From: a virus
Length of the DNA: 64,000 nt
IMG/VR virus record: IMGVR_UViG_3300043122_000207
Coordinates: 64,001 to 128,000 of that record
Reading direction: 5' to 3' (one strand)
Shown: positions 4,601 through 32,070 of the stretch, one piece after another
Position numbering within the stretch: position 1 is the stretch's first letter
Layout: each line of letters starts with the position of its first letter
The notes under the pieces: generated by a model
Told to the model about the DNA's origin: nothing
The model's input: the letters and a program-made list of their open reading frames with translations, nothing else
Database searches by the model: none
Position numbers and translations under genes: made by a program

Positions 4601-7600
4601 ACTTATCTTTGAATTCTAAACCATATAGATAAACTGTTTCACTTAAGTCTTTTAATTTATCTGTGTATTCGTTCCATTTGCTTTCGATATCCTCTTTAGA
4701 AGGTAACAGACCATCTATTTTATCCTTGATAGTTGATGGTAAGTTTTTCAAGAATGTAAATGGTTTGGTTATATTCTCTTTTATCTTACCTAAGTAATCA
4801 GTTATAGGTGAAATATATTGGTCTTTGAAATTGCCCATCATATTTTTAAATTTCAGCATTAAGGCATTTCTTTTTTTGAATACACCGCCAAACACACCTT
4901 CTTTATCTGGTCTTAATGAAGGGTCTAGGTCACCAAATTGACCAACCAGTAATCTTTTAATGTATTCTATATTGTATGCAACACCATTTAAAAGTTCTTC
5001 TTGTTTTCTCATTATTTTATTTGAGAACTTTTTGATAGGTGATTCTGATATCTCTTCATTTCTTTTTTGTACAGAACCACCACCGGCAGCTTTTTTGTAT
5101 TCGTTCATATCCACAACTGTATCTGACTTTTGGATATCACTTAATACACTTTCCATTGTGGTGTTTGATACTTTACTGGATAATTTATTTAAACTACCCA
5201 TGACATCTAAATCAGAAATCTTTTTAGATAGTCCACTTTTTTTAAACATACCACCGAAAAATTCCTTTATAGATTTTGAATTTTTTAATTCATTATCTCT
5301 TTCTTTAGATTCAGATGCTGTATCTGGATAGAATACAATGAAGTTTCTAGATTTAGCATATATTAGATTTTTTGGTATATCGATTCCTTTGCCTCTCATC
5401 GGATCATCTACAGCAAAATGTTTTTGCTTACCGTTTCTTACTAATATATAATGTAGGGAACCCGACTTATCTTCATATAAAGAGATAACCATTGCACCAC
5501 TTGATATGGTATTATCTAATGCTTTAAGGGATACCTCTTCTCTTGAGAATATGTTAGTTGAGATATCGAATCTGTATCCAACATCTCTGAAGAAACCAAA
5601 AGATATACCGTCATTTTTGACTTTATATTTTTTAGCTATATTTGTTAGTTCATCTGGTTTTATTTCAACATCAAGTATATTTGATACAGCCATTGCAGCT
5701 GTCAATAAACCACAACCAGATTCACCAACTGTTGAACCACCACTTAAAGGAATAGAAGAATAATCGCCGTCCTTTTGTGAGAAGAAATGAATACCTTTTC
5801 CAAATAAAGCTCTATTGGATTTACCACTATATAAACCCTTAACTCTATTTACCCCTTCTCCGTATTCTTCACCTTCATCATCTCTTTTTACTTCGTTATC
5901 TATTTCATCTAAATTTACACTGTCGGTTTGGGAGATATTTTCACTTTTAGGTTCTGTCATATCATCCCCGATACCGAGTTTACCCTTAACCCAATTTATT
6001 GGTTTTTTAAGCCACTCCCCAATTGGTGTTAGGAAAGTGTCTTTAAAACCTTTATATGCATCCATAATTGATTTATGGATTTTATCTGTTCTCTCTTTCC
6101 CAAAAAACTTCTCAGATATATTGGTTATCATTGATTTATCTTTATTTTTGGCACCAAATAATCTCTCTTTTAATTTAGAGTTGTTTGCCATCATACCTGA
6201 ACCAATACCTATTAGGGAAGTCAACATAGTACCCATAAAAGGAGAACCGGTTAAAACGGTAGAAGCTATTGCACCAATACCGATACCACCCATAGCACCA
6301 GCACCAAAATCTAACCCTTTCATTACATTGGGGTTATAATCTTTAAATAAATCCCAACCGTCATCACCAGAGGATCCTCCACCCGATTTAAGAGCTTCAA
6401 CAGCTGGATTTGAACTGGGAGAACCAGCTGCTTTAGAAAATAATTTGGATACACCTTTGGATAGTTGTTTTGTGACCTCATCTTCTATATCTTTTTCATC
6501 TTCTATATTGATATTGGGTGATTCAAAATCATCAGTTGCATCTTTAACACCAGTTAAAATCTGTCCCAATTTGTTATCCATATAGGATGAATGTATATCA
6601 TCTATACTTTGTCCACCAGATTTTATAATATTATCTAAATCATATGGGTTATTATCTTTCCATTCCTTTATTTCTTTAATGTCGTTTACCCCGATTTTAT
6701 CTAGGAACGGTAAATTTGTAACCCCCATCATAGAAGCATTAATATAATCAAGGGTATTGAATTTATCATATGACTCTTCTAAAACTTTTTTATCTTCCTC
6801 TGTCATATTGATGTCAAAATTATTACCCATCTCAGATAAATCTTTTCTATTTCTGGTTGGGTCATATTGACTTAAACTTTTATATTTTCTTTTATCATCT
6901 TCAGCTAGAGGTTCTCCATTTGAACCCATACCGTTTACACCGTAACTTTGAGATCTAAATGAACCGTCGACTAAAGTGTTAACACCAGTCATATTAGCTC
7001 TTTGGGATTGCTCAGCATAATAATCTGACATCTGAACATTATAGTCACCCATTGCATTTTGGATATCTCTGAACTCACTGGCTGAAGTTTGGTCTTTTCC
7101 AGATTTGGCTTTCATTATTGCATTTCTAATTAACTGATATTCAGATTTAGATATTTCATCTGGGGACATACCCATCATATTTATGAACTTATTGTATTTC
7201 ATAACCGACATATCGTCTAAAGTGTATGAACGGTCTAAAAGATTATCAGTTATTTTTGTCATTGTGGCTTCTAAAGCATCTGAGTCCACTTCACCAACAC
7301 GGTCTTTATCTAGGTTACTTTCTACTAGACTGGTTATTCTACCATACTGTCCTTTAAAATCTGGACGCATATCGTAAAATTCTTTTGCTACTTCAGACAC
7401 ATCTTTATATTGACCGGTATCATAATTGAATACCATCTCTTCATTACCAGAAAGTGTTGAAAGTATCTTTCTTAGGTATGTTGGTATAACTTCAGTTATT
7501 GCTTTTTTAGTTACACCATCGAAGAAAGTTCTACCTTTATTATAATTGCCAGTTTGGATGCCCCTGTTTATATCACCTTTATCTCTTAAGGCATCACCCA

Positions 7601-8708
7601 ACATCTTGACAAGTTTATTATCGGATAAGGACATCTTATTGAATAAAGAGTTCTTACCAGCTTTTGCTTGATCAAAAAGCCCATCTAATTTCTCTACAAC
7701 ATCAAATCCTAAGAAACGATTCAATCCTGCTTCAGTAACATCCTTTAAAATCATAGATGGGTTTGACATATATTCTTGCATGAAAGTGGGAGCCATAGAT
7801 GCCATCATAGCAAAAGAACCTGTTGGGTCCATTGCATTTAATAATTTATAACCAGCATCTTGAGCTGCACCTTTATAGTTTCCTTCTCTTATGAAGTCCA
7901 TCATTCCACGGTTTTTATTTTGACCACCCATCATTTGACCCATTGGGTTTTCTTCTATAACAACATTCTCTTCTAATATGGATCTTATCTCGGTCATTAA
8001 ACTCATATGGTCTTGATAGAATTTGGTTGTCTTATCTATGAAATCTTTTTGGATCTCGTCATTAAATTTAACCAGGGTTTCAAGGTTATCATTCATCGTA
8101 TCCATTTTATTATCTAATTTATCGAAGTGTATGTTGGATGCGATTTTACTATCTATATGTAAAGCCTGCATGACATCACTTAAAGATAAAGCTAAAGCTT
8201 CATTACTATCTATGACGGCATCGGGTGTTTTCATATCCATCCCGTCTTTAACAGAATTATTTTGTCTGAGTTTACCTAATAATCCTGAATCTTCATTGGT
8301 GTCTGATGATGTGTTTATGTTTGTTCTGCCGGATGCTTGTTCATCATCTACAGAAACACTACCACCCTGTGGGATATCGTCACCCTCACCGTCATCATAT
8401 ATCATATCATTAACATTTGATAAACCCATTTGTTCTTCAAATGCTTGGTCTTTTCCTTTATATACATTACCTCTTTTTAATTCTTTAAAATATTTCCTAG
8501 AGGCATTATTGATATCTCTAAACATTGAGGTATTTAATATTTGCTTTTTTACATTTCTTATCGAACCTGATTTATGGTATAATTTTTTACTATCTTGTAA
8601 AGTCTTATTTAAATTTCTACCAGCTTCCATTGTATTCGGTGCATAACTTTCTGATAAATCCTTAACCAAATACTCGAAGCTTTTTTTAAGGTTTTTTATA
8701 TAAGCCAA
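1632..8708 (-). CDS. tape-measure / tail lysin-like protein (2358 aa) with two C39 peptidase-like domains
   Basis: Very long, with Gly/Ala-rich amphipathic and Trp-spaced segments; two Q..GC..H..DP papain-fold motif sets; late-type promoter at 8745-8758. Confidence 0.75.
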   Translation of the reverse strand: MAYIKNLKKSFEYLVKDLSESYAPNTMEAGRNLNKTLQDSKKLYHKSGSIRNVKKQILNTSMFRDINNASRKYFKELKRGNVYKGKDQAFEEQMGLSNVNDMIYDDGEGDDIPQGGSVSVDDEQASGRTNINTSSDTNEDSGLLGKLRQNNSVKDGMDMKTPDAVIDSNEALALSLSDVMQALHIDSKIASNIHFDKLDNKMDTMNDNLETLVKFNDEIQKDFIDKTTKFYQDHMSLMTEIRSILEENVVIEENPMGQMMGGQNKNRGMMDFIREGNYKGAAQDAGYKLLNAMDPTGSFAMMASMAPTFMQEYMSNPSMILKDVTEAGLNRFLGFDVVEKLDGLFDQAKAGKNSLFNKMSLSDNKLVKMLGDALRDKGDINRGIQTGNYNKGRTFFDGVTKKAITEVIPTYLRKILSTLSGNEEMVFNYDTGQYKDVSEVAKEFYDMRPDFKGQYGRITSLVESNLDKDRVGEVDSDALEATMTKITDNLLDRSYTLDDMSVMKYNKFINMMGMSPDEISKSEYQLIRNAIMKAKSGKDQTSASEFRDIQNAMGDYNVQMSDYYAEQSQRANMTGVNTLVDGSFRSQSYGVNGMGSNGEPLAEDDKRKYKSLSQYDPTRNRKDLSEMGNNFDINMTEEDKKVLEESYDKFNTLDYINASMMGVTNLPFLDKIGVNDIKEIKEWKDNNPYDLDNIIKSGGQSIDDIHSSYMDNKLGQILTGVKDATDDFESPNINIEDEKDIEDEVTKQLSKGVSKLFSKAAGSPSSNPAVEALKSGGGSSGDDGWDLFKDYNPNVMKGLDFGAGAMGGIGIGAIASTVLTGSPFMGTMLTSLIGIGSGMMANNSKLKERLFGAKNKDKSMITNISEKFFGKERTDKIHKSIMDAYKGFKDTFLTPIGEWLKKPINWVKGKLGIGDDMTEPKSENISQTDSVNLDEIDNEVKRDDEGEEYGEGVNRVKGLYSGKSNRALFGKGIHFFSQKDGDYSSIPLSGGSTVGESGCGLLTAAMAVSNILDVEIKPDELTNIAKKYKVKNDGISFGFFRDVGYRFDISTNIFSREEVSLKALDNTISSGAMVISLYEDKSGSLHYILVRNGKQKHFAVDDPMRGKGIDIPKNLIYAKSRNFIVFYPDTASESKERDNELKNSKSIKEFFGGMFKKSGLSKKISDLDVMGSLNKLSSKVSNTTMESVLSDIQKSDTVVDMNEYKKAAGGGSVQKRNEEISESPIKKFSNKIMRKQEELLNGVAYNIEYIKRLLVGQFGDLDPSLRPDKEGVFGGVFKKRNALMLKFKNMMGNFKDQYISPITDYLGKIKENITKPFTFLKNLPSTIKDKIDGLLPSKEDIESKWNEYTDKLKDLSETVYLYGLEFKDKLSDAAKSMKESAIEFMKDMKKKSASAWERWKEDIYPSIKESMGEFKERGKEFFTSAKEHLASGISKLWGGIKSAGKWGLDKALSVGSLFSDKAGKIKDKLFSKRVQKVYVDGGHLDAIGAVGAIDADAYNAAKDDLDKTENAQNHEGRDIDFDSSTALTVADRQQEMDISNESKRTSLLGKIKDKLGSKKGSKDEGGLIDGVLQESIAELLGGTVGGTVAGVATNAVATHGAGGILAGAGMAASGAAGAGMSVWDAIKGFIHASDMLDKDVDETTFIDKVLTGMSSVLGGTGDGVSNIVWNAVKWGLIGTAIGPGVGTIAGAVLGAGMGAVNGSRIAKFQTGVKDAIFGFGSKITTSVKEFFVGNDGEGEDAKKGIFEKMGENDGIVGAIKGGAAGGAMGGPLGLLIGAGVGAYGPGKFLKKIANPIETIGDVGGWIGDKLIGIKDAIWDSKFGSFLEAAGKTAGDVVDQFINVDEIVQGVKENVEEAKLKISDTAQSIKDGLHEKIVKPLDDNIVSPVQESFTEFKNKIVGIGDNVKSKVETAYDEFTKKVTDLGDAIYDNTIGKVKESFETIAEKLGEFKDTIVEIVTNPGDFIKKTAGGFINRYTPNWMQSAYQNTTGFFGNIGNTFSNVWGALGNFGSYYDQAEAKRGRGQTQPIMGPSGYPAAHGDGRDNFVNQKSNKFKNLMIGSKKFSNSGCAPSVLSMLLSNYGKKVPVEVLAKEAAPYTSNGGVVIDYFKHQFEKHNLEGDMYTENIPDLMNNMAEGSQSVLLTKAQNGNDHYVLVKKSGGKLMLFDPLKNNTKMISVNDKIIRDASLAYMSQPKMDPEKMFSLSDFKTRVGAGLGAGVDLLTGQKRDKIKSMVNTQRADQLNKIRSLKDRVSYGRDIEREINNTTYNNSSNSETIKDLSVDNSKVEEKLDTLIDEIKKLAGVFSTVGKEIVQNSNTNNITSNNNTNNVNAGGKDEQNLDKNKRDSFMETINKISSGVLT

Positions 8709-12067: not shown

Positions 12068-12469
12068 TTATTCTTTAAAAAAATCCTCTATATTCTTTTT
12101 CAGTTGAATTAAGAATTCAAATAATATGTTATGTTGAACACATTCTTTTATATAGTTCTTTTTAAACATGTTTTCCAATACCACCCTTCGAGTAATATAT
12201 TTATGTTCCAAATGTATGGTATATAAAATTGCTACGGTAGTGAATATCCATAGTAACCTAACATTACCTGAACCCGAATTAATACTCATAAATGTAGTAT
12301 ATAAGCATAACAACATTAAAGTTATCATTCTCAACATACCCTTTAAATCGTATGTGTCCCTTATGATATAAATTTTTTTTCCCTCATAAACGGTTCCGAC
12401 TCTACCTATTGTTTTCTCTAAGACAAAAACTTTTTTATCGGGATTAGTCTTACATTTCCATTTTTCCAT
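12068..12469 (-). CDS. hypothetical membrane protein with two TM segments
   Basis: Two hydrophobic stretches; start overlaps the tmk stop (translational coupling). Confidence 0.6.
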   Translation of the reverse strand: MEKWKCKTNPDKKVFVLEKTIGRVGTVYEGKKIYIIRDTYDLKGMLRMITLMLLCLYTTFMSINSGSGNVRLLWIFTTVAILYTIHLEHKYITRRVVLENMFKKNYIKECVQHNILFEFLIQLKKNIEDFFKE

Positions 12470-13197
12470 TAAATACCACCTTCACTAGTGCCCCCATACG
12501 TTATCCAAGCTGGATTAGGTAATACACCTTTTCTTTTTATTGATTCACATATTTCCCCGAGTATGGTTTCTCTATTCTTTAACTGTCCATTTTCACTACA
12601 TTTGATTATGTCCCATTTTTGTCTTTTTACAACAAATAAAGAATTCTCATGGGTTTTTTTCATGTATGCTTTATCAACTTCATGTATATCTTTATCCTTG
12701 GTGCCAGTGATTTTATTTTTTCTATTCTCTATAAGTTTTTCTCTGATATCATAATCCATATGAAGGAAAATTGTGATATCTGGTTTTGGTAAACCTAGTT
12801 TATTATACTCTAAATCATATTCCCAATCTAAAAATTTTTCTTTTTCATTTAAGGTTTCGAATTTAGAACTCTGGTGTATCATATTGGAAGAAACATATCT
12901 ATCCATTATTATAATATATCCTTCATCAACATATTTTTTCCATGTGTTTTTAAAGGATATAAACCTATCCGAGGCATAAAATAAAGATGCAGGGTAACCA
13001 CCGATATCTTCAGCCTCTTTAGAAATTTCACCATTTAAATACATTTTAACTAAATGTGAAGAATCATTATCATAGAAAGGGAAGGATAATCTTTTCACCT
13101 TCTCATATCTACCATTTAAATAATCATATAATAATCTGGTCTGTGTTTCTTTCCCTACACCATCTACACCATCAATCGCTATTATTTTGGATTCCAT
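12469..13197 (-). CDS. tmk: thymidylate (dTMP) kinase
   Basis: IAIDGVDGVGKETQ P-loop, LFYASDR, IIMDRYVSSN and PKPDITIFL motifs. Confidence 0.93.
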   Translation of the reverse strand: MESKIIAIDGVDGVGKETQTRLLYDYLNGRYEKVKRLSFPFYDNDSSHLVKMYLNGEISKEAEDIGGYPASLFYASDRFISFKNTWKKYVDEGYIIIMDRYVSSNMIHQSSKFETLNEKEKFLDWEYDLEYNKLGLPKPDITIFLHMDYDIREKLIENRKNKITGTKDKDIHEVDKAYMKKTHENSLFVVKRQKWDIIKCSENGQLKNRETILGEICESIKRKGVLPNPAWITYGGTSEGGI

Positions 13198-13210: not shown

Positions 13211-14650
13211 TTAATAAAAGTCTATAACATTGGTAACATGTCTTCTTTTTTTGCTATCTCTAATAGTTATTAAACCTAATGGATCAATGACCGGTGCAAT
13301 AAGGTTTGATGTTTGTGTTATAACTGGTGTGGTATTTAAGAAATCCAAAACAAAATCCGGTATATAGGTTATATCGTATGGTAGTGCTATTTTTTTTATA
13401 TCCCTGTATCTCTTCTGGATGGAAGATAAATTATCAAGTCTAAATCTTTTTAATTCAGATTCCTTTGCACCTCTCTCAATTAGTTTCTTTTTAATCTTTA
13501 AACCTTTTCTTTTCATAAATTCATTGGAAACTAAACGGAATGTATCTGTATAAATGTCTAATACATCCATAGCCATTTTCTCTATACCCTGATCATATAC
13601 ATCGTTGATTTTAAGATATAAATATTCACCGTCATTTATGACCATGATATTATTATCCATCATGTCTACTACTTTCTTTGTTTTATAAAGGTCATATTGG
13701 CTCCTAAACTTAGAGTTAAATTTCTGTACTATGACATCCAGTAAATCTTGATCTAAATCTATATCGTCAGATATCTTTAAAAAAACAGAGTTATTTTTTA
13801 CTGAGACTTCACCGCGATACATTAAACCAGATTTACCTTTTTCTTTTAATTCTATGAAATCCAACTCTTCATAATTGAAATTTATTCTATCTGATATGTC
13901 AACTCTGTATCCATTTAATTTATCTTCGTTTGATTCTATCATTCTATCTATTATGTGATAGGATAGTTTCTTAAACATCTCAGGGTAATCTCTTTTCATA
14001 CCCTCTATATCTGTCATATCTAAATAAGCTGTATAAAAGGTTGCTGGTGCCTCTATCTCATCATCTAAACCTAAATCATTCCATAACTTTATTGCAGTAA
14101 CTCTGTGGTCTGAGATAGGGAAGTCTTCGAACACACCATTTAGCTTATGGACATCAAAGAATTCTTGTGCAGTTTCACCCTTCATCATTTCTAAAACTTC
14201 ATTATCTATATCTCTTAATTTATTTAGTATCCTGTCTAACTTTATATCCTTTTCTCTCATGATATCATTTTCAACTATGTCCTCAACATTACTGCATAAC
14301 TTCTGGTTAAAATTTGATTTAGTAAAAGATAAACCCTTAACGTCCAAGTCAGCAACTTCAAAAACATTTCCTTCTTTAAGTTTATTTAATCCTATATAAT
14401 TTTTCTTTCTAGATGTTAAAACGAATCTTTTATAGAGGTACTCGTTTTTCATATTGATTCTTGATTTATATCTTTCCAAAACATTAGTGTGGTCCTTATA
14501 TCTTTCCAAAGAATAATCCACACAACTTACAGCAACCATTGTGGAAAGATTAGAAAGAGTAAACCATATCTCGTCTTCAGACAAATTTTTGTATCCTTTG
14601 TTATAAAGATCGTTTATATCATTATTCAGTTCATCTATAGCAACCATATT
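13211..14650 (-). CDS. family B DNA polymerase subunit, exon 3
   Basis: Follows intron 2; KNEYLYKRFVLTSRKKNYIG and DVKGLSFTKS match PolB KKRY/KG motifs; 1440 nt in frame. Confidence 0.85.
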   Translation of the reverse strand, partial: NMVAIDELNNDINDLYNKGYKNLSEDEIWFTLSNLSTMVAVSCVDYSLERYKDHTNVLERYKSRINMKNEYLYKRFVLTSRKKNYIGLNKLKEGNVFEVADLDVKGLSFTKSNFNQKLCSNVEDIVENDIMREKDIKLDRILNKLRDIDNEVLEMMKGETAQEFFDVHKLNGVFEDFPISDHRVTAIKLWNDLGLDDEIEAPATFYTAYLDMTDIEGMKRDYPEMFKKLSYHIIDRMIESNEDKLNGYRVDISDRINFNYEELDFIELKEKGKSGLMYRGEVSVKNNSVFLKISDDIDLDQDLLDVIVQKFNSKFRSQYDLYKTKKVVDMMDNNIMVINDGEYLYLKINDVYDQGIEKMAMDVLDIYTDTFRLVSNEFMKRKGLKIKKKLIERGAKESELKRFRLDNLSSIQKRYRDIKKIALPYDITYIPDFVLDFLNTTPVITQTSNLIAPVIDPLGLITIRDSKKRRHVTNVIDFY

Positions 14651-15701
14651 CGTTTATACCCTCGGTCTCCCGATATTTAGAAACTTGGGACTAGACTATA
14701 TCATGATCATATAACCTTAAAGGTTACTTAGATCCCTTCCATTTCCCTCACGGTACTCTACTCAGTTATCATCAGTCAGTCACCCAACTGAATCCCTTTT
14801 CGATAGTCGTTGAACCTTTAGTCGAGATATCTTAAAAATTATAGTTTTCGGAAATATTAACATATGATTCTTTCTCTCTTATTCTTTTTACAAATTTCCA
14901 GAACTTTTGTCTTTCTAATGTTTCTGAAGTATCAAAGTTTAACGTGTCGGCTATTTCTCGGGTTGTAAGATTTTTTTCTAATAAATCACAAACTGACACC
15001 ACCATGCTTTTCCAATTGTACTTATATTTGTTTTTTCTATGGTGTATATCATAATTTGCATATATGCCCTTATGAATGGTACCAGTTTTAATTTTTTGTA
15101 TAGTGGTTAACTCCACTTTATCTTTGAATTTTGGATATAAATCCATCGGATTTAACCCTTTTTCTAACCCTCTACAAATATAATGTACATCGTCATCAGT
15201 CAATACACCTTGATCTTTATGTTGTGTGAATGTCCCTTGTTTTATCGAATGGTGTATATTTTCTTTTTGTGTCAACCATCTCAAATTATAGATATTATTG
15301 TTACCCCTATCTAAGTCTATGTGATCGACCACATAGTCATTTGGGTTATCTATTGGGTCATAGGTGTTTAACATCACCCGATGCACGTAGAAATTTCTTT
15401 TATTATTGTTTTCATCTATAGGTAATCTCACATACTTATAGCCGGCATTCTTTATATTTTCTTTCAATACTTCACCAGTATTGTAATTTTCTATAATTCC
15501 GTGTTCTGAAATAATGTAATTCCCGTATATTTTGTACCCATCGACAAATTCAATATCTTTATAAATGATAAACAAATCACTCCTTTGTCGATATCTCGAT
15601 TACTTGGCTGCTGATTGTCTTATAACTTTTCAGCTATAACAGTTCCCAGCAATTAGAAAGGTTTTTCACATAATGTTTCCACTATGTGCTCCTATAAATT
15701 A
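14651..15701 (-). mobile_element. group I intron 2 in the DNA polymerase gene (1051 nt)
   Basis: Minus-strand core elements: P AATTGCTGGGAA (15643-15654), Q AATCAGCAGCC (15606-15616), R GTTCAACGACTA (14804-14815), S ATGATATAGTCT (14693-14704). P1: exon CUCU pairs with GGAG, ending in U-G. Terminal G at 14651; splicing gives IDTDS|NMVA. Confidence 0.9.
14832..15575 (-). CDS. intron-encoded HNH homing endonuclease (NUMOD4-HNH-HTH), sense to the intron
   Basis: YVHRVML...VVDHIDLDRGNNNIYNLRWLTQKENIHH; AAGGAG RBS; flanked by the 10-bp stem TCGAGATATC/GATATCTCGA (P6 loop). Confidence 0.9.
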   Translation of the reverse strand: MFIIYKDIEFVDGYKIYGNYIISEHGIIENYNTGEVLKENIKNAGYKYVRLPIDENNNKRNFYVHRVMLNTYDPIDNPNDYVVDHIDLDRGNNNIYNLRWLTQKENIHHSIKQGTFTQHKDQGVLTDDDVHYICRGLEKGLNPMDLYPKFKDKVELTTIQKIKTGTIHKGIYANYDIHHRKNKYKYNWKSMVVSVCDLLEKNLTTREIADTLNFDTSETLERQKFWKFVKRIREKESYVNISENYNF

Positions 15702-16430
15702 AGAGTCTGTATCAATCAATAAAATCAAACTTCTCATTATATTTTTAATTGTACCCTGTGTATTCGTGGTGATTTTGTTTGCCTCTTCAATAAGATCCCC
15801 GCCATACCAGTAATATCCACACAATATCTGTTCTGTCATATCCTGTAATTTATCGATTTGTTTTTTAACAGATTCCGGTGGTTCATAAGGGTCAACAAAA
15901 ACACTACCTTCATCTTCTTTTCTATTTTTATCAATTGTATCTAGGGACTCTTTAAATAAACTTTTAACTTCGTCAATATTTAAAAAGGCGTCTATATTAT
16001 TTTTATAATATATTTTTATTAAAGATTCTAAAGATATCTTATTTATTTTTCTAAAGACACCATCGTATGCATAGTAGTTTTCATCAATACCAATATGCTC
16101 CATTACTTTTTGTATATAAATTCCTTTTAACTTTGAATCTCTTTCTTTTTCGTTGTTCCAACTAATACCATTTTCTTTAGCTCTCCTTACAACATTAGCA
16201 AACAATACCCCATAATAATCGTCATCTTCTTTTATTATTTCATCCAATGTGTAAATTAGTGCATCATATTTTTTAGGGAAATAACCACCCAAAGCAGCTT
16301 CAACAGTTAAAGCAGAAATAGATATTATACTTCTACCTTTAGAAGTTATTGCTGCACCCAAATCAGGAGAAAACAATTTACAGTACATATTAATTAAAAC
16401 ACCGTATAAGGTGTTCATAATAATTTTTGT
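15702..16430 (-). CDS. family B DNA polymerase subunit, exon 2
   Basis: KIIMNTLYG (motif B), AAITSKGRSIIS and LIDTDS (motif C); 729 nt in frame. Confidence 0.88.
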
Positions 16431-16446
16431 CACTGTTGCTATTCAT

Positions 16447-16460
16447 AACAAATAGCTTAG
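16447..16460 (+). promoter_or_regulatory. late-type promoter for the antisense intron endonuclease
   Basis: AACA-AATAGCT-TAG matches the window-wide motif; it lies 45 nt before the TTG and upstream of an AGGGGG RBS. Confidence 0.65.
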
Positions 16461-16505
16461 TGGACTATATCATATCCGTACATTCTTAAACAGGGGGCGA
16501 TTCAT

Positions 16506-17441
16506 TTGAAAAATGTAAAAATTAATACTGAGGAAACTTTATTTGATTATCACATTGATAAGGATGGTTTCATTTATGGACAATACGATAGACCTTTAAC
16601 TATATATAAAAATGGTAAAGGTGAGTTTGTCAAAATGTATCATGAGGGGTCTTCAAAATCTTTTCATATACATGAGCTAATTGCGTATACTTTTTTGGAA
16701 TATGAAAAGAGTGAAGACACAATAATATCTTATTACCCTAATAAAAAAACCAAACTGAACAACGTGAAGATATCCAATGTTTTCGATTACGTTGAAAATA
16801 GACATGGTTTCAAAAAACCCAAATTTTTAAAATACGATGATAAAAAATACACCAAATATATCGTGGATATAGATGGTCGTGTATTCAACACCGAAACATA
16901 TAAAATATTATCTGAGCATCAAACCCCTCAGGGATATGTCTTTGTGACATTAAATTTAAAGACAAGAATGATGCATCGTATTTTATATAGCACATACGTT
17001 GAACCCATGGATCCTGATCTAGTTATAAACCATAAAGACGGCATTAAGTCAAACAATACCCTCAGTAACTTAGAGTAGGTGACCACAAGAGAAAACTCAA
17101 TGCACGCTATCAATACTGGGTTAATTGAGACATTTGGGCCCGAAACAATAGAACCTATTTTGACCTTATACTATGGTGGGGAGGGAAGAAAACATATCTC
17201 AGAAAGATTAGGTATCAATTATAATACGGTTAGGTATATAATAGAAAAACATGCCAACCATTCTCCCGACTTTATTAACAGAACTTCTTTCAATTTATTA
17301 GAAGTTGAAAAAATATTCAAATTAAAAGAAAAAGGCTATTCATATTCTGAAATCTCAAAAAGAATCGATCACAAAAATATTTCCACCATAGGGTATACAT
17401 TGAATAATAAAAATTTCCAAAGAATGTTTAAAAATGATTAG
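16506..17441 (+). pseudogene. HNH homing endonuclease antisense to intron 1, interrupted by an in-frame TAG
   Basis: ORFs 16506-17078 and 17079-17441 share a frame; INHKDGIKSNNTLSNLE*VTTRENSMHA has TAG (17076-17078) at the conserved W; C-terminal HTH repeats. Confidence 0.85.
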
Positions 17442-17784
17442 GATTTGCCTGTTTCCATTTAATCACATGGGTTTTTAGTGAACCTTTCGAGGGCTGTACT
17501 ATATCTAAAAAGATACCCTAGTCTCTGAACCCACACCATGATGACCTATATAAAAGTCATTTTAGATGTTCGGCTGCTGATTATCCATTATAACTCTCCT
17601 TAGGGCACCATCCTTAATTGGGTGGTGTTTTTATTTCACCATAGAGAATCCCCTAACTTGTTTCTGACTTTCGTCACCTTTGTATGGGTTTTCACCGCAT
17701 ATTTTGGTACAGGGGCGTTAAGAACTCCCAGCATTTAAGGCAATTTTAACCACACTGTTTCCAGTATGGTAGGACACACTTTTT

Positions 17785-18210
17785 ATCCTTTTGTCTTAAA
17801 TCATACAACTTACCAAGTATGGGGTCATCACCTTCTGTTAAGTAGTAATTACCCAACTTCTTTATCTCAGCTCTATCATCAAACAATCTCATCTCACCAC
17901 TAACAACTGGTGGTGTTTTGATATCTTGGTTTAAAAAGAATGTGCCATTTTCAACCATAAGATAAGGGGTTGAATAAACATCTTCAATAAAATCCAACGC
18001 ATCCAATTTATAGTTTTTACCTCGAACTGTATTGATTAATTCTACGCTTCTATTTACAAACTTATCTTTAAATAATCCGTATAATTTTGTGTCATCTTCT
18101 AATTCTAATTTTCTAGAAACATCCTCTATCCAAGCGTCTCTAAAAACATCTTCATTCTCGAAATTTTTTGCAAATTCCAAATACCCTCTTGACCATCTAC
18201 TCATTGACAA
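17785..18210 (-). CDS. family B DNA polymerase subunit, exon 1
   Basis: AAGGAG RBS; ...ENGTFF...YDLRQKD leads into motif B after splicing; 426 nt; spliced product 864 aa. Confidence 0.85.
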
Positions 18211-18222
18211 TCATCTCCTTAG

Positions 18223-18252
18223 AACAATATTTTAGCTCACATTAAATTGTTT
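18223..18252. promoter_or_regulatory. adjacent divergent AACA-type promoters (DNA polymerase and 18247 gene)
   Basis: Plus AACA-ATATTT-TAG (18223-18235); minus AACA-ATTTAA-TG. Confidence 0.55.
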
Positions 18253-18720
18253 ACGATGATAAAAAATTATCTAGGAGGTCATTATATAATGGAATTGCTA
18301 TCTACAAATGAAATAGAGAAACAATTGGACGCAAAAGAAAAAGGTTTCACCAGTCTTAATAGTGTAGACGATATTCTTCTTTCTCTTCTTCTTATCAAAA
18401 AAGGTGTACCTATGACAGCTCAACTTTCTAAGAAGGTAAAAAAGAATACTGAGTTTGAAATCCCCACAATCGAAGGTCTTGTTTCAAAAGAAGACGAAGA
18501 ACATAAAACATATGATATTGAACTTTTAAAACTTACTGCATTTTTAATAGCCCAAAAACGCGGCGATGAAAACGTAAAGGTTATTGAAGAACAGTATAGT
18601 GAATTTAAATCTATGATGGATAACCTTTATGAAGACTATGCTGAAGATGCGGCTGTAACTTTAAATGAGGTTATTGAAAAAGCAGAAAAAATTGAGAAAC
18701 TCGATAAATTAGATGTATAA
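18247..18720 (+). CDS. hypothetical acidic protein (likely start ATG 18289)
   Basis: AGGAGG RBS before MELLST, late-type promoter at 18223-18235, terminator at 18726. Confidence 0.7.
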   Translation: MFTMIKNYLGGHYIMELLSTNEIEKQLDAKEKGFTSLNSVDDILLSLLLIKKGVPMTAQLSKKVKKNTEFEIPTIEGLVSKEDEEHKTYDIELLKLTAFLIAQKRGDENVKVIEEQYSEFKSMMDNLYEDYAEDAAVTLNEVIEKAEKIEKLDKLDV

Positions 18721-21111: not shown

Positions 21112-21200
21112 TAAAAATAATCGCAGGTGTTTAAAACCACCTGCTTTTTTTTATGATTATATATTATATATGAGAACAGATAAAAATAATTTAAAAGGAG

Positions 21201-23687: not shown

Positions 23688-23691
23688 TTTA

Positions 23692-23715
23692 AAACAAGGG
23701 GTAAAACCCTTGTTT
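23692..23715 (+). terminator. intrinsic terminator
   Basis: AAACAAGGG-GTAAAA-CCCTTGTTT followed by a T-run. Confidence 0.85.
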
Positions 23716-23789
23716 TTTTTATTTAAAATTATGGTGTTGAAACAAGTCTATAGACTTTTAAATGTCTGGAAGGTGGTGAATTATAAACC

Positions 23790-25265
23790 ATGTCAAAAGA
23801 AATGAAAATATTAGAGTATGGTGCAAGTTATAAAATAATAAACCCTAATAAAGGTATAGAAGATCTTTTAGAGAATTTAGAAACTATAGACTATCATACT
23901 AGAGAAAAAGTACCTTTGGGGTATTTTTACAATAGAGAAAAAGATGCCTATTCGGTACCAAAAGGTATAGGTAAGTCTGAACTTTTTAAATATTTGAAAA
24001 CAAATAAAACCCAAATGGGTGGGTTTTTAGATGTGGGGGATAAACTTGGTTTTAAAATGAAAAATAACCCATTTAAAAAACAGTCTAAGATAATCAATAA
24101 TGTTCATGACAATTTTAAAAGAGGAGACACACAAGCTATTGTGGATATGCCAACTGGTAGAGGTAAGACATTTGCTGCCATTTACCTAACCCATAAGCTA
24201 AATAGAAAACCCATTATATTCGTTAAAAACGGTAGACAGTGTAAACAGTGGGCAAAAGGTTTTGTAGAGCATACCCATATAGATGAGGATAGGATATATA
24301 TAGCCAGAGGTAAAACCAGGGTACACTATCTATTTGAAAATGGTGATGACTATGATGTGTTTATAACAACACACAGGACAGTCTCAAACTTTATAAGAGA
24401 TAACGGTTATAAAAAATTAAACCAATGGTTTCTAGCTATGGGTGTTAACCTAAAGATATTTGATGAGTTTGATTTGGCTGTAGAAAATATGTTCAGAATA
24501 GATTGTCATTCCTCTTTTAGATATAACTTATATTTAACAGCTACACCTTTTAAATCTGGATATTACGATAACCAAGTTTTTAAATACGCATTTAATAGAG
24601 TATACCAATTGGGTAAAGATTTATATGCAAATGAAACACCCAATAGAGATGCTCATATCGTATTTTTGAAATCTGATCCAGAGAAAAAGGAGAAGAAAAA
24701 ATGTTACACATATAAAAATACTGGACAAAGGTGGGAACCTTTCTTTGACCCTGATAAATATCACCAGTATATAATTAAAAAGAAAAAAGTTTTAAAAAGC
24801 TTTTTAGATATTCCTTTAAAACACATCAAAAAAGAATTAAAAAATAATCCAGAAAGAAAACATATATTCTTTACTGGTAAAATAGAAAACTGCGAATTAA
24901 TAAAAGGTTTATTGATAAAGGATTATAATATCGATCCCTCGATAATTGGGATATATAATTCTGACGTTGATAAAAAAGAAAAAGATGAAGCTTTAAATAA
25001 ATCGGTAATAATTTCTATCTCTTCTAGTATGGGTAGAGCATTAGATATTAAAAACCTAGAAACACTGGTTGATATGGAAACCTATAGGAGTGCATCTATA
25101 TTTGTGCAGCTAATAGGTCGTGTCGGTCGTGTGGGGGGATTAAGAGGAAGATGGTATAAAATGTTTGATACATCTTTTTATAGAAATTATTTTTATTATA
25201 AAGAATTAAAAAAATATATTCATAGCGAATTCGATGAAGTTGAATATCAAAAATTAGAAAAATAA
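23790..25265 (+). CDS. superfamily 2 (UvsW-like) helicase
   Basis: MPTGRGKT, IFDEFD, LTATP, MGRALDI and QLIGRVGR motifs. Confidence 0.9.
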   Translation: MSKEMKILEYGASYKIINPNKGIEDLLENLETIDYHTREKVPLGYFYNREKDAYSVPKGIGKSELFKYLKTNKTQMGGFLDVGDKLGFKMKNNPFKKQSKIINNVHDNFKRGDTQAIVDMPTGRGKTFAAIYLTHKLNRKPIIFVKNGRQCKQWAKGFVEHTHIDEDRIYIARGKTRVHYLFENGDDYDVFITTHRTVSNFIRDNGYKKLNQWFLAMGVNLKIFDEFDLAVENMFRIDCHSSFRYNLYLTATPFKSGYYDNQVFKYAFNRVYQLGKDLYANETPNRDAHIVFLKSDPEKKEKKKCYTYKNTGQRWEPFFDPDKYHQYIIKKKKVLKSFLDIPLKHIKKELKNNPERKHIFFTGKIENCELIKGLLIKDYNIDPSIIGIYNSDVDKKEKDEALNKSVIISISSSMGRALDIKNLETLVDMETYRSASIFVQLIGRVGRVGGLRGRWYKMFDTSFYRNYFYYKELKKYIHSEFDEVEYQKLEK

Positions 25266-25282
25266 CTTGGAGATGGATATAT

Positions 25283-26119
25283 ATGAAAACTAAATTTGAT
25301 AACATCCATGATTTAGAAAATATAGAAAAGTATTATTTTTTTGCTGATGATATACTTTTTTCTACACAATTTACTCTTCTTTATTCTTTGACAAGTTTCA
25401 TGCTAGATATAGAAAATTTTTTTGAAGCTTTAGAAAATATCGAAGAGTTTAATAATCTATCAGAAGAAGAAAAAAATAAAAGAGACCATGATCCAAACGA
25501 TATTGATATAGAACTGCCAGAAGATGATGATTTGGTAGAACTATTTAAAGACTACGCCAGTGGTGATGATAGGTTAGAAAAAATATATGATCAATGTAGT
25601 GAATTATTAAATGATATAAAGGGGAAACTCGGAATAGAAAACCCTGATGAAATTCATGAGAAAATACTATTGAGAGAGGATGAGGTCTTCATTACTTTAG
25701 AGGACCTCTTTAGTATTTATGATGGGTTTCCGTTACAATTAAAAACTATAACATCCGGTGTATGCGATGGTATGGTGTCGTTTCCCAATCAATTTAAAAA
25801 AACACATAAGATAGTTTTTAAAAACAAACTGGAATATAATATATATAAAAATATTGTCTCACCAGTAAACACTTTGGAATTGGAATACGATATAGTTTTA
25901 GATTTCTTATATATAGATGATTTAGAAGAAGATATATCGGAAGAATTGAAAACAGAAGATGAAGCTTTAATATATATATCAACAGTTGATAAAGAAATAA
26001 TTGAAAAATATTTAGAAGAATATTTTTCAAATGTATTAATACTTCTACCAACCAATTATGGTTTTATAAATAAAGATGATTTCCCCACAAACAGAATACT
26101 AGAAACCGGAGTTTGGTAA
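25283..26119 (+). CDS. hypothetical protein with degenerate HAD / 5'-deoxyribonucleotidase-like motifs
   Basis: FFADDILFST resembles HAD motif I and LYIDD resembles motif IV. Confidence 0.35.
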   Translation: MKTKFDNIHDLENIEKYYFFADDILFSTQFTLLYSLTSFMLDIENFFEALENIEEFNNLSEEEKNKRDHDPNDIDIELPEDDDLVELFKDYASGDDRLEKIYDQCSELLNDIKGKLGIENPDEIHEKILLREDEVFITLEDLFSIYDGFPLQLKTITSGVCDGMVSFPNQFKKTHKIVFKNKLEYNIYKNIVSPVNTLELEYDIVLDFLYIDDLEEDISEELKTEDEALIYISTVDKEIIEKYLEEYFSNVLILLPTNYGFINKDDFPTNRILETGVW

Positions 26120-26178
26120 AAACTATATTGTACAACAAAAATGTAGACAGAAAATTAAATTACTAAGGGAGGAATAAA

Positions 26179-27831
26179 ATGAGTACATTTAAAAACTTCA
26201 ATGCAACAGGAAACGAAATAGACACTAAAGAAAAAATCGGTGAGATTCTAAAAGAGATGAGTGGTATATTAGCTAAATCTTACTCTCCTTTCGGGAGCAG
26301 TTCTATCATTATTGATGAACACAAGGTGACTAAGGATGGTTACAGTATACTGAATTCTTTAAAACCAGAAAGTGAACTTGCAGTCTGGGTCACTAATATG
26401 GTGAGGAGCTTAACAAATAAAACATTATTAACTTCTGGTGATGGTAAGACAACAGCTGTACTTCTTGCTGAGGCACTTTTTGAAAACTTAAATGAAGTCT
26501 TTGAAGAAAGTTACCGTGGCAAAACACCACAAGATTTTATAGGTGATGTGAACGGTTTAGGACATGCTTTAATAGACTCTTTGGATAAAATTAAGTATGT
26601 TCCAGAAAATAAAGAAGAGTTTTTGAATATAGCTTACACTTCTTTAAATAACGATAAAGAATTAACCAATTATGTTAAAGAAGCACTAGAAGTTTTTGAT
26701 GACCCAAAGGATATGAACATAGTCGCATCTATTAATGAAGGGTCTGATAAAATCAAAGTTGATGTTTCAAAAGGTATGGACATTAGGTCTTCTTTAATGT
26801 TTGGTATTGGTAGTGCTTTAAATAATGCCGTACTTAAAGAATGTAAAGTATTTGTGGCTGGAGAAAAAATAGAATCAGTAGAACAAATCGAAAAAATATA
26901 CGATGTCTTAGATTATGTTTCTGATACCAATTCTAAACTCATGTTTATTGCACCAGAATATTCTGCAACAGCAACAAGAAAAATTAAACAAAGATTACAG
27001 AAAATGAATATGGAACAAAAAAATCTGGGTGTATTCTTTTTAAGTGTGGACAGAGGTGGTACCATGGATGGACGAGACCATTATGGAGATGTCATGGCAT
27101 ACCTTGGTACTGTTGTGCTTAATCTACACGATGCTGAAGACTTTATGGATACATTTAAAGAAAACTTCAATAAATTATCGGTCGCTGACATTAAAGTGGG
27201 GACATATAGCACAACTTTCATGATTAAAAAACGAAATAATGACCTACTATACAATGATAGGATTAGTTTGATAGAAAGACAAATGGAAAACGGTAGTCTT
27301 GAAGATAGAAAGAAAGCAACTTATAGATATAATAAAATGACAAGTAAGGTTGCTGATATCAAAGTTGGTGGTAATATTCCAGAAGAAGCTAGAAGGATTT
27401 ATTCTATGTTTATGGATGCCACACTGGCTATGAATTATGCTAAAGAAGGTATTGTGTCTGGTATGAACACAGCAATGATTAAAACAATCAATTCATTTGA
27501 ATATAAAGATGAAGGTATTGCTGAAATCGCAAATGCAATTAAAGATTCCTATAAAAAATTATTTGATGTCATTGTTGATATGTCTAGAAGAGATGTCTCA
27601 GATGATATTGTAGAAGAGATCACTCATTTAGACCCTGAAGATAAAAAGAGCATACTAAAGACATATGATGTTAAAGATGAGGAATTAACTTATACCATAA
27701 CAAATCCTTTCCAATCTGAAAAGGTTATTTTATTAGCGGCATTAGAGATTGTAAAGATTTTTATTACAGCTAATCAGATTATCTTCTCAGATGTGTATGT
27801 TACAAACTATTTCGATAAAACAGGAATGTAG
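26179..27831 (+). CDS. phage chaperonin (GroEL-like)
   Basis: SYSPFG, VTKDGYSIL, SGDGKTTAVLLA, IKVGG and GIVSG motifs; 550 aa. Confidence 0.92.
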   Translation: MSTFKNFNATGNEIDTKEKIGEILKEMSGILAKSYSPFGSSSIIIDEHKVTKDGYSILNSLKPESELAVWVTNMVRSLTNKTLLTSGDGKTTAVLLAEALFENLNEVFEESYRGKTPQDFIGDVNGLGHALIDSLDKIKYVPENKEEFLNIAYTSLNNDKELTNYVKEALEVFDDPKDMNIVASINEGSDKIKVDVSKGMDIRSSLMFGIGSALNNAVLKECKVFVAGEKIESVEQIEKIYDVLDYVSDTNSKLMFIAPEYSATATRKIKQRLQKMNMEQKNLGVFFLSVDRGGTMDGRDHYGDVMAYLGTVVLNLHDAEDFMDTFKENFNKLSVADIKVGTYSTTFMIKKRNNDLLYNDRISLIERQMENGSLEDRKKATYRYNKMTSKVADIKVGGNIPEEARRIYSMFMDATLAMNYAKEGIVSGMNTAMIKTINSFEYKDEGIAEIANAIKDSYKKLFDVIVDMSRRDVSDDIVEEITHLDPEDKKSILKTYDVKDEELTYTITNPFQSEKVILLAALEIVKIFITANQIIFSDVYVTNYFDKTGM

Positions 27832-27934
27832 TATATAAATCCCAGGGTGTAAAAACCCTGGGGTAAACTACTATATAAATTATAATTATATATTATAAAA
27901 GTGAAAGGAAACACTACATAATAAAAAAAGGGAG

Positions 27935-28225
27935 ATGAAGAGAATGAAAAACATAATTATTTTGATAGTCATGGTTAGTTTACTTTTTGGTCTAGGTGGT
28001 ATTGTTTATGAATCTATGTCTTATGAAATAGGTTTTAACGACACTGTTCAGTTTACAGTAGGACCAAATGATACAATTTGGGAGGCATTAAATACTATTA
28101 AGGGTCGAGAAAATATAGATGGACATATGTTGGTTTCCTTAATAAAGGAAATGAATAATTTAGAAAACAGTATGTTGAGAGTCGGACAAACTCTCATCAT
28201 ACCTGAGGAGGTATATAGAAAATAG
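27935..28225 (+). CDS. membrane-anchored LysM protein, YneA-like
   Basis: N-terminal TM followed by VGPNDTIWE...IKEMNNLENSMLRVGQTLIIP. Confidence 0.75.
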   Translation: MKRMKNIIILIVMVSLLFGLGGIVYESMSYEIGFNDTVQFTVGPNDTIWEALNTIKGRENIDGHMLVSLIKEMNNLENSMLRVGQTLIIPEEVYRK

Positions 28226-28341
28226 GGATTATAATCTCCCTATTTTTTTGTGAATATTATAAAACTCCCAACATATATATGAAGAGATTTAACATTGAGA
28301 TAGTCGTCGTATTCTACTTTTTATGGGTGGTGAAAAAATAA

Positions 28342-28737
28342 ATGGAACAAACTCAGTTTGATTTTTCTAAAAACTCCAATTTAAAAGAACTGGATGAGGA
28401 TAAAAGAGATAACATACATAGGTGTCTGGTTATTTCTGAGGCAACATCCAATAATCTCGATAATGTTTTAAAAGAAGCTATTGAAGAAGATGACATAAAT
28501 AAAGAGGATAAAAAAGAACTTAAAGAACTTATTAAAATAGTCAATAACTTCTATAGTAAATTGGAGACTTTAAATATCAATTTAGAAAAAAAGAGGAGAG
28601 GGTTAATAAGTTTAGAAATGAAGAAAAAGATATATCATTTCTATATGTCTGGTTTATTTTCACAACACCAGTTAGGTAGAATATTTGGTGTTAGTCAGTC
28701 TACGGTTTCTAGGGTAGTAAAACAACTATCCAAATAA
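28342..28737 (+). CDS. helix-turn-helix DNA-binding protein
   Basis: C-terminal SQHQLGRIFGVSQSTVSRVVK; AACA-TTGAGA-TAG at 28291. Confidence 0.75.
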   Translation: MEQTQFDFSKNSNLKELDEDKRDNIHRCLVISEATSNNLDNVLKEAIEEDDINKEDKKELKELIKIVNNFYSKLETLNINLEKKRRGLISLEMKKKIYHFYMSGLFSQHQLGRIFGVSQSTVSRVVKQLSK

Positions 28738-28759
28738 TATAAAAATGGAGATGGTTTAG

Positions 28760-29050
28760 ATGAAAACTAAAAACTATATTTTCGATTATTTAACAGATTC
28801 TTTAGGGTTTGGGGGAAAAGAAGACAAATTTAAAGAATACCAGTTAAGAAAGATTGCTAAAGCAGCTAAAGATTTAGACGAAGCCTTTTATGCCTGTGAG
28901 CTACATATTAGCCATGGTTACAGTATACACAAGTTAGAGACCATGTTAATGAATGGTGATAAAGAAGACTATGTGAGTGTCAGTGAAGAATACAAAAAAT
29001 TAACAGAAAATGATAGATACGATGACTTTGAAAAAAAACTTCAAGAATAA
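28760..29050 (+). CDS. hypothetical protein
   Basis: GGAG RBS; terminator at 29074. Confidence 0.65.
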   Translation: MKTKNYIFDYLTDSLGFGGKEDKFKEYQLRKIAKAAKDLDEAFYACELHISHGYSIHKLETMLMNGDKEDYVSVSEEYKKLTENDRYDDFEKKLQE

Positions 29051-29170
29051 TTAAGAAATCGACACAATATAAAGGTGGGGTTTGTAACCCCACCCTTTAT
29101 TTACGTTTTGAAAGGCTAATCAACAATTCGTTTAGAGAACTAATAAAAATAAAAGAAGGAGGTAAATAAC

Positions 29171-29749
29171 TTGAACGAGAATGCTTATAGAAAAATAGTT
29201 GGTAGAAAACCCCATAATGACATCATTAGGGTTTTGATTATACCAGGACATAGTATAGACAAACCTGGTGCATATAATGATAAGTTGGGTATTAGTGAAC
29301 ACGATGTAGTGATGGATATAGCAACCAAAATGTTAAAGAAAGAAAAAGACAAGTCATTAAGTCTCATATTGACTTCAAGAAATTCTTATTCTAAATTACC
29401 TGATGAATTAAATTATTTAAGACCAGATTTTATTATTTCCTTACATCTTAATGCATTTAATTCCGAAGCACAGGGGACAGAAACCCTTTATTACGAGAAA
29501 TCCTCAGCCTCTGAACTATTAGCAGAATTAACACAAAAAGAACTCCTAAGACTAGGTTATAATGATAGAGGAATTAAAGCCAAAAAGAGATCTGATAGAG
29601 GTGGTCACATGTTGATAAACACAGCTAAACCTTGTGTTATTGTGGAACCATTTTTTATAGACTCTATAGAAACTGAAGAAGAAATGAATGAAAACGCTGA
29701 AATTGTAAGCGACCTATTGCTGAGTGCTATCTATAAAAACTTTACTTAA
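29171..29749 (+). CDS. N-acetylmuramoyl-L-alanine amidase (amidase_3) endolysin
   Basis: IIPGHS, SEH, ISLHLNA, GTETLY and IVEPFFIDS motifs. Confidence 0.9.
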   Translation: MNENAYRKIVGRKPHNDIIRVLIIPGHSIDKPGAYNDKLGISEHDVVMDIATKMLKKEKDKSLSLILTSRNSYSKLPDELNYLRPDFIISLHLNAFNSEAQGTETLYYEKSSASELLAELTQKELLRLGYNDRGIKAKKRSDRGGHMLINTAKPCVIVEPFFIDSIETEEEMNENAEIVSDLLLSAIYKNFT

Positions 29750-29779
29750 ATATCCCAATATAAAGAGGGGAGGTATAAT

Positions 29780-30139
29780 GTGGCCACAGCAGAAAAGATC
29801 CTTTCAAACGAAGGAATTTTGAAACTCTTTGGGAGTGCTGATATTATACCACTTACTTTATTTATTTTTTTTACAATTTTTATTTTTTTATTGGTGATAA
29901 TGTTAATAAATAATAGAAACCAACTTAAGATAAATAAAGAATGGTCTAATGCTATAAATGATCTTTCTTTAGCCATTAATCTTGATATGGAAAAAGACAA
30001 AAGCACTCTAAAGGAGATAGAAAAGACCAACGATAAATTAGACAAATTAAGCTTACAACTCGAAACACATAATAAACAAATGGAAGAAAATGGGGAAAAC
30101 CAAGCCACCAAAACTATTAATAAAGAGGGGGGCGATTAA
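29780..30139 (+). CDS. holin-like protein (BhlA/UviB-like)
   Basis: Single N-terminal TM plus coiled coil, directly after the amidase. Confidence 0.55.
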   Translation: MATAEKILSNEGILKLFGSADIIPLTLFIFFTIFIFLLVIMLINNRNQLKINKEWSNAINDLSLAINLDMEKDKSTLKEIEKTNDKLDKLSLQLETHNKQMEENGENQATKTINKEGGD

Positions 30140-30145
30140 AGAAAA

Positions 30146-30415
30146 ATGCTTGAACTTATGATACTAACCCTAATCACGATACTGATGGGTATATCGTGGG
30201 TTTGGCTTTTTAACTTATCTCCATTTACAGTTTCACTAGCTATAAGTTCAGTCATATGGTTATTTACAACGACATTTGTTTCCATATTTTTTCTGATTTT
30301 CTTTTACACTGTTTTAAACGTGATTTATGGGTGGAAAAAAATGATGAATGAAAGAATAGCCATAATCAAAGAAACTGATGCACTTACTAAAAGAATAACT
30401 AAGGAGAATTTATAA
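30146..30415 (+). CDS. small membrane protein (two or three TM)
   Basis: Strongly hydrophobic; GGGGG RBS; stop overlaps the next start. Confidence 0.6.
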   Translation: MLELMILTLITILMGISWVWLFNLSPFTVSLAISSVIWLFTTTFVSIFFLIFFYTVLNVIYGWKKMMNERIAIIKETDALTKRITKENL

Positions 30416-32059: not shown

Positions 32060-32070
32060 TCATTCCCCTC

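Follow-up and report, generated by a model that had tools for sequence, protein, structure and literature searches.

How is a homing endonuclease gene expressed when it lies backwards in the group I intron that carries it, and does its RNA serve only the spread of the intron or also the host gene? The question is raised by a DNA polymerase gene in a viral contig of 146 kb (IMG/VR record IMGVR_UViG_3300043122_000207, 82% complete, read with code 11), of which we analysed the 64,000 nucleotides from 64,001 to 128,000, referred to here as the window. The same genome encodes phiKZ-type RNA polymerase beta subunits and GroEL, and the nearest cultured-phage relatives of the polymerase are in Fusobacterium phage JD-Fnp, Staphylococcus phages SA1, S6 and PALS_2 and Bacillus phages AR9 and PBS1, so that the virus is an AR9/phiKZ-related phage. 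The polymerase is of the divergent family B found in AR9/phiKZ-type phages, and its minus-strand gene is in three exons separated by two introns (Table 1). In intron 2 the HNH ORF (14832-15575) is intact, sense and situated between Q and R, and there is no AACA-type promoter. Intron 1 has its HNH gene on the opposite strand, and we think it probable, from the sequence and its relatives, that it is a mobile group I intron with a selfish, self-contained antisense homing cassette, which is now decaying in the lineage represented by the window.

Table 1. Features of the polymerase locus, with positions numbered from the first nucleotide of the window
Feature	Position	Strand	Comment
DNA polymerase exon 1	17785..18204	-	ends ...LRQKD; 78% nt identity to intronless L013
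Group I intron 1	17784 to 16431 (1,354 nt)	-	splits polymerase motif B (QKD^TKIIMN)
DNA polymerase exon 2	15702..16430	-	TKIIMNTLYG ... IDTDS
Group I intron 2	14651..15701	-	at polymerase motif C (DTDS^NM)
DNA polymerase exon 3	13211..14650	-	Pfam divDNApol
P1 of intron 1	17771..17789	-	U.G pair at 5' splice site; guide also forms P10 with exon 2
P3 3' strand and P8 5' strand	17449-17445 and 17444-17441	-	
P8 3' strand (16477-16474), J8/7 and P7 3' strand (S element)	16463..16477	-	
P9.0	16461-59 paired with 16434-32	-	invariant across three homologues
P9 hairpin	16456-51 paired with 16443-38	-	
Omega-G	16431	-	preceded by P9.0
Predicted nvRNAP-type phage promoter AACA-N7-TAG	16447..16460	+	predicted start 16459-16460
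RBS AGGGGG	16492..16497	+	8 nt upstream of TTG start
HNH homing endonuclease gene	16506..17441	+	in L8, antisense to intron; 311 codons in relatives
In-frame TAG, codon 191	17076..17078	+	CAG (Gln) in intact alleles
Predicted intrinsic terminator (8-bp hairpin and U-tract)	17606..17636	+	in insertion of ribozyme P5 region
Near-identical tract	16420..18317	.	same, bar the nonsense SNP, between strains with flanks 12-17% apart; candidate homing co-conversion tract

With regard to the ribozyme, intron 1 is real, and it would be spliced out at the ends given in Table 1. It has an IA-like core with P7.1-type extras and a long P5 extension, the P, Q, R and S elements are present, and there is pairing for P1, P10, P2, P3, P4, P6, P7, P8, P9.0 and P9. 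The intron begins after the exon U of the P1 U.G pair and ends in G, and the boundaries proposed in an earlier sequence-only reading of this DNA are correct to the base. Joining of the exons gives ...LRQKD/TKIIMNTLYG..., as in the intronless homologue P0013 (862 aa, from L013), which reads LRQKDTKVVMNTLYG across the site, and removal of both introns in silico restores the host frame and gives exactly 862 aa, the length of P0013. The R, S and P3 elements had been proposed to fold into one intron around the ORF, and the core helices do pair, with compensatory changes in homologues: P2 and P3 are altered on both sides in L012 and L268, and P1 and P10 of L268 are changed compensatorily in a way that fits its different exons. 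The Rfam model Intron_gpI (RF00028) gives no match to intron 1 of the window or of L012, and weakly matches the homologous L268 intron (E 3e-5, below the gathering score).

L012 and L268 have introns at the same codon and serve as our controls. In L012 the polymerase is 54% identical to that of the window, and the 5' half of the intron, at the same site, is 77% identical. Its homing endonuclease gene (HEG) has been deleted internally, and what is left is the RBS as a GGGG remnant, the TTG and the final codons (MFKNT-stop). The intron retains the P9 stem but not the AACA, and the terminator hairpin discussed below is weaker and again forms on the antisense strand only. L268, which is more distant, has a short L8 with no HEG and has no P9 hairpin, and the terminator hairpin is absent as a clean gap. 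The control for loss of the promoter is one genome (L012) and one distant homologue (L268). The introns at neighbouring polymerase sites in the related phages L015, L264, L265 and L267 either have a sense HNH gene between Q and R or have none, and the antisense layout is thus specific to the intron 1 lineage. One of these sense genes, in L264 (5542-5787), is a decayed remnant with an 81-aa C-terminal piece, and its relative in L265 has a full ORF of 223 aa.

Some other intron arrangements were seen during the comparison. L012 (5198-6011) and L268 (417-1264) each have two introns only 18 nt apart in motif B, one before TK/LK and one after MN, with an exon of six codons between them. In L029, a contig of 218 kb, a region of about 1 kb (about 6700-7700, minus strand) has a tandem series of at least five group I-like introns, all short and lacking an ORF, with very small exons between them; two of these introns are near-identical copies. 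A motif containing GACTATATC is present directly upstream of the RBS in L155, L157, L161, L166, L170 and about 15 more viral contigs, before genes that begin MAGVHFTGP or MANTTFSGP; it looks like a conserved structured leader and not an intron.

The HNH gene had been described as a plus-strand gene filling L8, and both strand and placement hold: the coding region sits between the two strands of P8, one of which is overlapped by a single base of its stop codon. On the intron strand, every frame of L8 is interrupted by 16-22 stops. However the gene is not open in the window, as it had been taken to be, as codon 191 is TAG. The TTG start is supported by distant homologues, which align from residue 15. 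The protein has an I-HmuI-like HNH core and C-terminal HTH motifs (Pfam HNH_3, PHROG 59). The intact allele P0005 matches HNH_3 with an E value of 4.9e-9, and the sole match of known structure is I-HmuI itself (PDB 1u3e, E 5.5e-7), with N175, H176, N184 and N197 aligning with the catalytic residues (His general base and Asn ligands) and N197 with the last Asn of the HNH motif. An AlphaFold2 model was set aside (pLDDT 38.5). We found no close relatives of the HEG or the polymerase in IMG/VR or GTDB, nor in JGI metagenomes when searching these by exact DNA pattern.

The TAG falls inside the catalytic beta-beta-alpha motif and removes N197 and the HTH region, and the allele in the window is probably dead. 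Sequencing error can be set aside, as the TAG recurs in independent assemblies (L001 and L010). CAG and a 311-aa product are present in six other contigs (L004-L009, from JGI, ENA and Logan; intact alleles P0005 and P0008). The simplest reading is that the allele in the window is a recent C-to-T nonsense mutant and that CAG is ancestral, as all other haplotypes, with at least three flank types, carry CAG. The activity of the intact allele is itself not assured, as it has Gln in place of the Trp found at this position in 258 of 335 homologous motifs (77%). We also considered whether TAG is read as a residue under an alternative code, and rejected it, TAG terminating 23 of 163 long ORFs and recoding barely shifting the coding density. 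Provision of HNH activity in trans by a free-standing gene was likewise rejected, the 82%-complete record holding only the two intron HNH genes.

Upstream of the gene, the AACA-N7-TAG and the AGGGGG that had been pointed out are both present. Among the spaced motifs found before genes in an unbiased genome-wide search, AACA-N6/7-TAG shows the strongest enrichment (23 and 20 hits, with about 1 expected for each), and of 71 such sites in the genome 45 are within 90 nt of a start. The chance of finding it in a given stretch of 60 nt is about 1.4%, and as it is the commonest of the upstream motifs we take its presence in the intron to be more than chance. The site is 45 nt from the TTG, the median distance for the genome being 35. 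With a matrix from whose training it was left out, the site comes 46th of 292,686 positions, at the low end of the training sites. It has N7 spacing and a GC-richer spacer and so departs from the strict AACA-6N form; the N7-TAG form accounts for 17 of the 35 upstream sites of the genome. The late consensus of AR9, mapped by dRNA-seq, is AACA-6N-TA/G, with 17 variants in spacing or sequence (PMC5312081), and by analogy the intron promoter may be late and used by the nvRNAP. There also appears to be a late site of the AR9 type for the polymerase gene, and the HEG and polymerase transcripts may therefore not differ in timing. A sigma-70 promoter scan gave results at chance level. AR9 late promoters require uracils in the template strand, and the presence of uracil or thymine in the DNA of this phage is for that reason of importance.

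It had also been suggested that the promoter lies in the P9 hairpin and that the same bases make both a helix and a promoter. The overlap is only partial: most of the AACA falls in the P9 loop, the spacer, which is nonspecific, coincides with the 5' strand of P9, and two of the TAG bases belong to P9.0. The P9 hairpins directly after P7 in AR9 (L031) and in L072 also read AACA-N7-TAG antisense, with no long antisense ORF, and are possible cryptic late promoters. That of AR9 is palindromic, with AACA-N7-TAG on both strands and no ORF in L8, and an antisense AACA-N7-TAG can thus arise by accident. We looked for an operator of the I-TevI style over the promoter of the HEG, but the best match (11/14) is equalled in 21-78% of shuffles.

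Some observations on the genome touch on these promoters. A second upstream motif, TTATATATTAT, has 17 exact copies genome-wide and resembles the AR9/MarsHill early promoter; examples in the window are at 21150-21200, 27890-27930 and 41360-41400. A dCTP deaminase gene adjoins a thymidylate-synthase-like ORF at 53232-55123 of the window, and there is a thymidylate kinase gene at 12469-13197.

The terminator-like hairpin, which the sequence-only reading did not mention, starts 165 nt past the HEG stop. Its predicted folding energy is -12.6 kcal/mol for the plus strand as against -7.9 for the ribozyme strand, the plus-strand fold being the stronger because a U.G pair becomes a C.A mismatch on the ribozyme strand. 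The bias is the opposite of that in the five ribozyme hairpins tested, all of which fold better on the ribozyme strand. The genome has 48 terminator sites of this class, 32 of them within 200 nt of a stop. A hairpin of this kind arose in 5.7% of shuffles of the region, which is borderline, and in none of 10 other intron segments. The tool used for the sigma-70 scan missed this terminator, probably as a G.U extension consumes the U-tract. The predicted unit of promoter, RBS, HEG and terminator would extend from about 16460 to 17635, about 1.17 kb. Expression of the HEG from its own plus-strand promoter, independently of splicing as had been proposed, is well supported indirectly, by the agreement of the promoter with the commonest motif of the genome and its typical distance, by the terminator-like hairpin on the plus strand, and by the loss of AACA together with the HEG in L012.

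The evidence for mobility comes from the population. Over most of 9.5-23.7 kb there is a difference of 12-17% between the window and the strains that carry the intact allele, and these strains lack intron 2. Exon 2 differs between the lineages at 116 of 711 nt. Intron 1 is identical across all ten contigs compared, one SNP excepted. On the exon 2 side the shared tract ends 11 nt beyond the insertion site in every intact-allele (B-type) haplotype, and on the exon 1 side it extends to 18317 in some haplotypes and to 18125 in three others. Asymmetric co-conversion is documented for intron homing (PMC2988022; PMC3984707), and the shared tract is likely to reflect homing with co-conversion on one side. 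The tract is however not decisive proof of homing, as other near-identical blocks emerge in a longer comparison. The population is strongly mosaic, and in it (window 9451-33419 against L004-L011 and L289) blocks of about 85% identity alternate with blocks of 99.9% identity, with breakpoints that vary by sample, and 23689-33419 is also 99.9% identical between the two lineages. As the strains are mosaic and have these other near-identical blocks, the tract could have been retained passively between imported blocks. There was no close intron-less allele in the collection searched.

The mechanism that we propose is as follows. The minus-strand polymerase pre-mRNA would splice out intron 1, with the 960-nt L8 as a passive loop. 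The phage multisubunit RNA polymerase would start a plus-strand RNA at about 16459-60 from AACA-N7-TAG, the TAG being supplied free by the conserved P9.0 strand and the AACA being accommodated in the unconstrained P9 loop. This RNA would span the RBS and the HEG and end at the 17606-36 hairpin and U-tract, giving a transcript of about 1.17 kb, for which we rely on motif statistics, strand asymmetry and the comparative series. The intact 311-aa protein would be an I-HmuI-like nicking enzyme that cuts intron-less polymerase alleles near the insertion site, after which the intron would be copied with co-conversion mostly on the exon 1 side, as suggested by homology for the endonuclease and by the shared tract for the copying. 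The C-to-T change at codon 191 would be the first step in decay of the HEG, and L012, with its internal deletion and loss of AACA, would be a later stage. The overlap of the HEG RNA with the intron RNA would then be a side effect and not a regulatory device of the host gene.

There are other ways to account for the locus. The HEG could be silent or leaky, with the promoter- and terminator-like sites being by-products of ribozyme hairpins and the tract being retained backbone. The palindromic P9 of AR9, with its antisense motif and no gene in L8, fits this, as do the shuffle fraction for the terminator, the big near-identical blocks elsewhere between strains and the absence of the conserved Trp from both alleles. 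However the polymerase mRNA offers no means of translating a gene that is antisense to it, and the HEG would have needed a transcript of its own in order to have spread. Furthermore the promoter, RBS, ORF and terminator are in order, the hairpin folds better on the antisense strand, AACA was lost with the HEG in L012, and all B-type haplotypes have the tract edge 11 nt away from the insertion site. We therefore regard a silent HEG as unlikely. In the case of the TAG allele, it could be that it still functions, by read-through or by re-initiation at GTG to give a split HNH, or that TAG is ancestral and CAG a pseudo-revertant. There is an in-frame GTG directly after the TAG, the TAG lineage is present in several samples, and the conserved Trp codon could have become CAG in two steps, TGG to TAG to CAG. 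However this genome uses TAG as an ordinary stop, a search of the window gave no tRNA genes, the break is inside the catalytic motif, and the distribution of CAG over all other haplotypes goes against an ancestral TAG. We give these possibilities very little weight indeed.

The sequence-only reading went further and proposed that the HEG transcript modulates splicing of the polymerase late in infection. The antisense RNA could act on the intron RNA in cis or in trans, or there could be an effect of convergent transcription, in either case to the advantage of the phage, and if this were so the reverse strand of the ribozyme would be a built-in antisense switch, with an RNA of about 1.2 kb throttling the splicing of the polymerase mRNA. 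The predicted RNA (16460-17635) is complementary to most of the catalytic core (P7, P8, P3, P6 and P4), and the promoter and terminator are intact in the nonsense allele. Late antisense promoters exist in AR9 (PMC5312081), and antisense interference is a recognised concern for the antisense HEGs of nuclear introns (PMC9548176). However L012 lost the AACA once its HEG was deleted, as expected for a selfish cassette, and L268 and the intron-less L013 manage without any of these signals. As the nonsense mutation is so recent (1 change in 1.9 kb), the persistence of intact signals cannot be taken to imply selection. In addition the RNA covers neither splice site and the polymerase seems to use the same promoter class. 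We found no support for modulation, the promoter decaying with the HEG, and both the regulatory role and the switch that it would imply seem to us improbable.

The selfish antisense cassette can be compared with several known systems. The SPO1 and SP82 introns (I-HmuI and I-HmuII), that of Bastille (I-BasI) and that of Pf-WMP3 (I-PfoP3I) likewise have an HNH gene in a group I intron of a phage DNA polymerase gene. The I-HmuI gene is located in L8, and the HEGs of these introns are on the intron strand. In contrast, the HEG discussed here is antisense, its predicted promoter and terminator both lying on the strand opposite to the ribozyme, and the host gene is a divergent family B polymerase of a phiKZ/AR9-type phage. 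No antisense ORF is reported in PMC3428280. In AR9 the HNH gene g190 is in an intron of g189 (virion RNAP beta) and has a mapped promoter inside the intron (PMC5312081). However g190 shares the strand of its host gene, is located between Q and R and is served by a promoter of the early class, unlike the antisense L8 gene described here. The T4 td, nrdB and nrdD introns have I-TevI, I-TevIII and I-TevII genes with their own middle or late promoters, asymmetric co-conversion and, for I-TevIII, a defunct allele (PMC2988022). Intron 1 resembles them in having an HEG with its own promoter, here predicted, in asymmetric co-conversion, here a candidate, and in defunct alleles. The T4 genes are sense, with translation from the long transcript blocked by an RBS hairpin and autorepression at an operator, whereas here separation would be by choice of strand, and there is no significant operator-like match. 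In the phiKZ-related phage PhiPA3, gp210 is an HNH intron endonuclease of an essential gene and attacks intron-less alleles of co-infecting phages, according to the accessible parts of the reports (PMC12908238, PMC11620839; Birkholz et al. 2024). Its host is an RNAP gene and its activity is demonstrated, and those parts describe no antisense layout; here the host is a DNA polymerase gene and the activity is predicted.

The nearest likeness in layout is to nuclear introns. The Didymium rDNA introns Dir.S956-2 (I-DirII) and Dsq.L2066 (I-DsqI) have antisense HEGs with a separate internal promoter (PMC3073962, PMC9548176), and as in intron 1 the HEG is opposite to the ribozyme strand and inside a peripheral loop. 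However in Didymium the host is a eukaryotic rRNA, the enzymes are of the His-Cys box family and there are Pol II transcripts with spliceosomal introns, whereas here we have a phage mRNA, an HNH enzyme and bacterial-type signals. Intron 1 works like the I-DirII and I-DsqI introns but belongs outside that group. It is a variant of known mobile introns.

It had been stated that the known phage intron HEGs are sense and that antisense HEGs are known mainly from nuclear rDNA introns. This agrees with the published cases that we found, as a literature search lying largely outside subscription journals gave, for antisense HEGs in phage introns, only the nuclear cases and the free-standing T4 segD. 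However the layout is not unique among phages. L225, an unrelated phage contig, has an antisense HNH ORF (1752-2348, plus strand) just upstream of S in a group I intron (1708-2577, minus strand; Rfam E 1.7e-10), the host gene being capsid-like. There is also an open frame on the L225 intron strand that continues for 560 codons into the downstream exon, and there is a LAGLIDADG ORF (2673-3140) just upstream. Two pattern scans for introns with an antisense promoter or RBS gave, among the matches listed, mostly chance hits and are not a census. The reviews of phage and bacterial group I introns that we searched describe only sense HEGs, and in at least one recent survey of phages (PMC11878797) translation around introns was limited to the forward frames, so that backwards HEGs may be systematically missed.

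Intron 1 illustrates how an antisense gene could gain its signals without harm to the ribozyme, as the predicted promoter would take up two bases of P9.0 and a free loop and the predicted terminator is in a peripheral insertion. The four natural stages of the allele, with no HEG, with an intact HEG, with a nonsense mutation and with a deletion, provide a test set for the life cycle of the HEG and for any effect of an antisense RNA on group I splicing.
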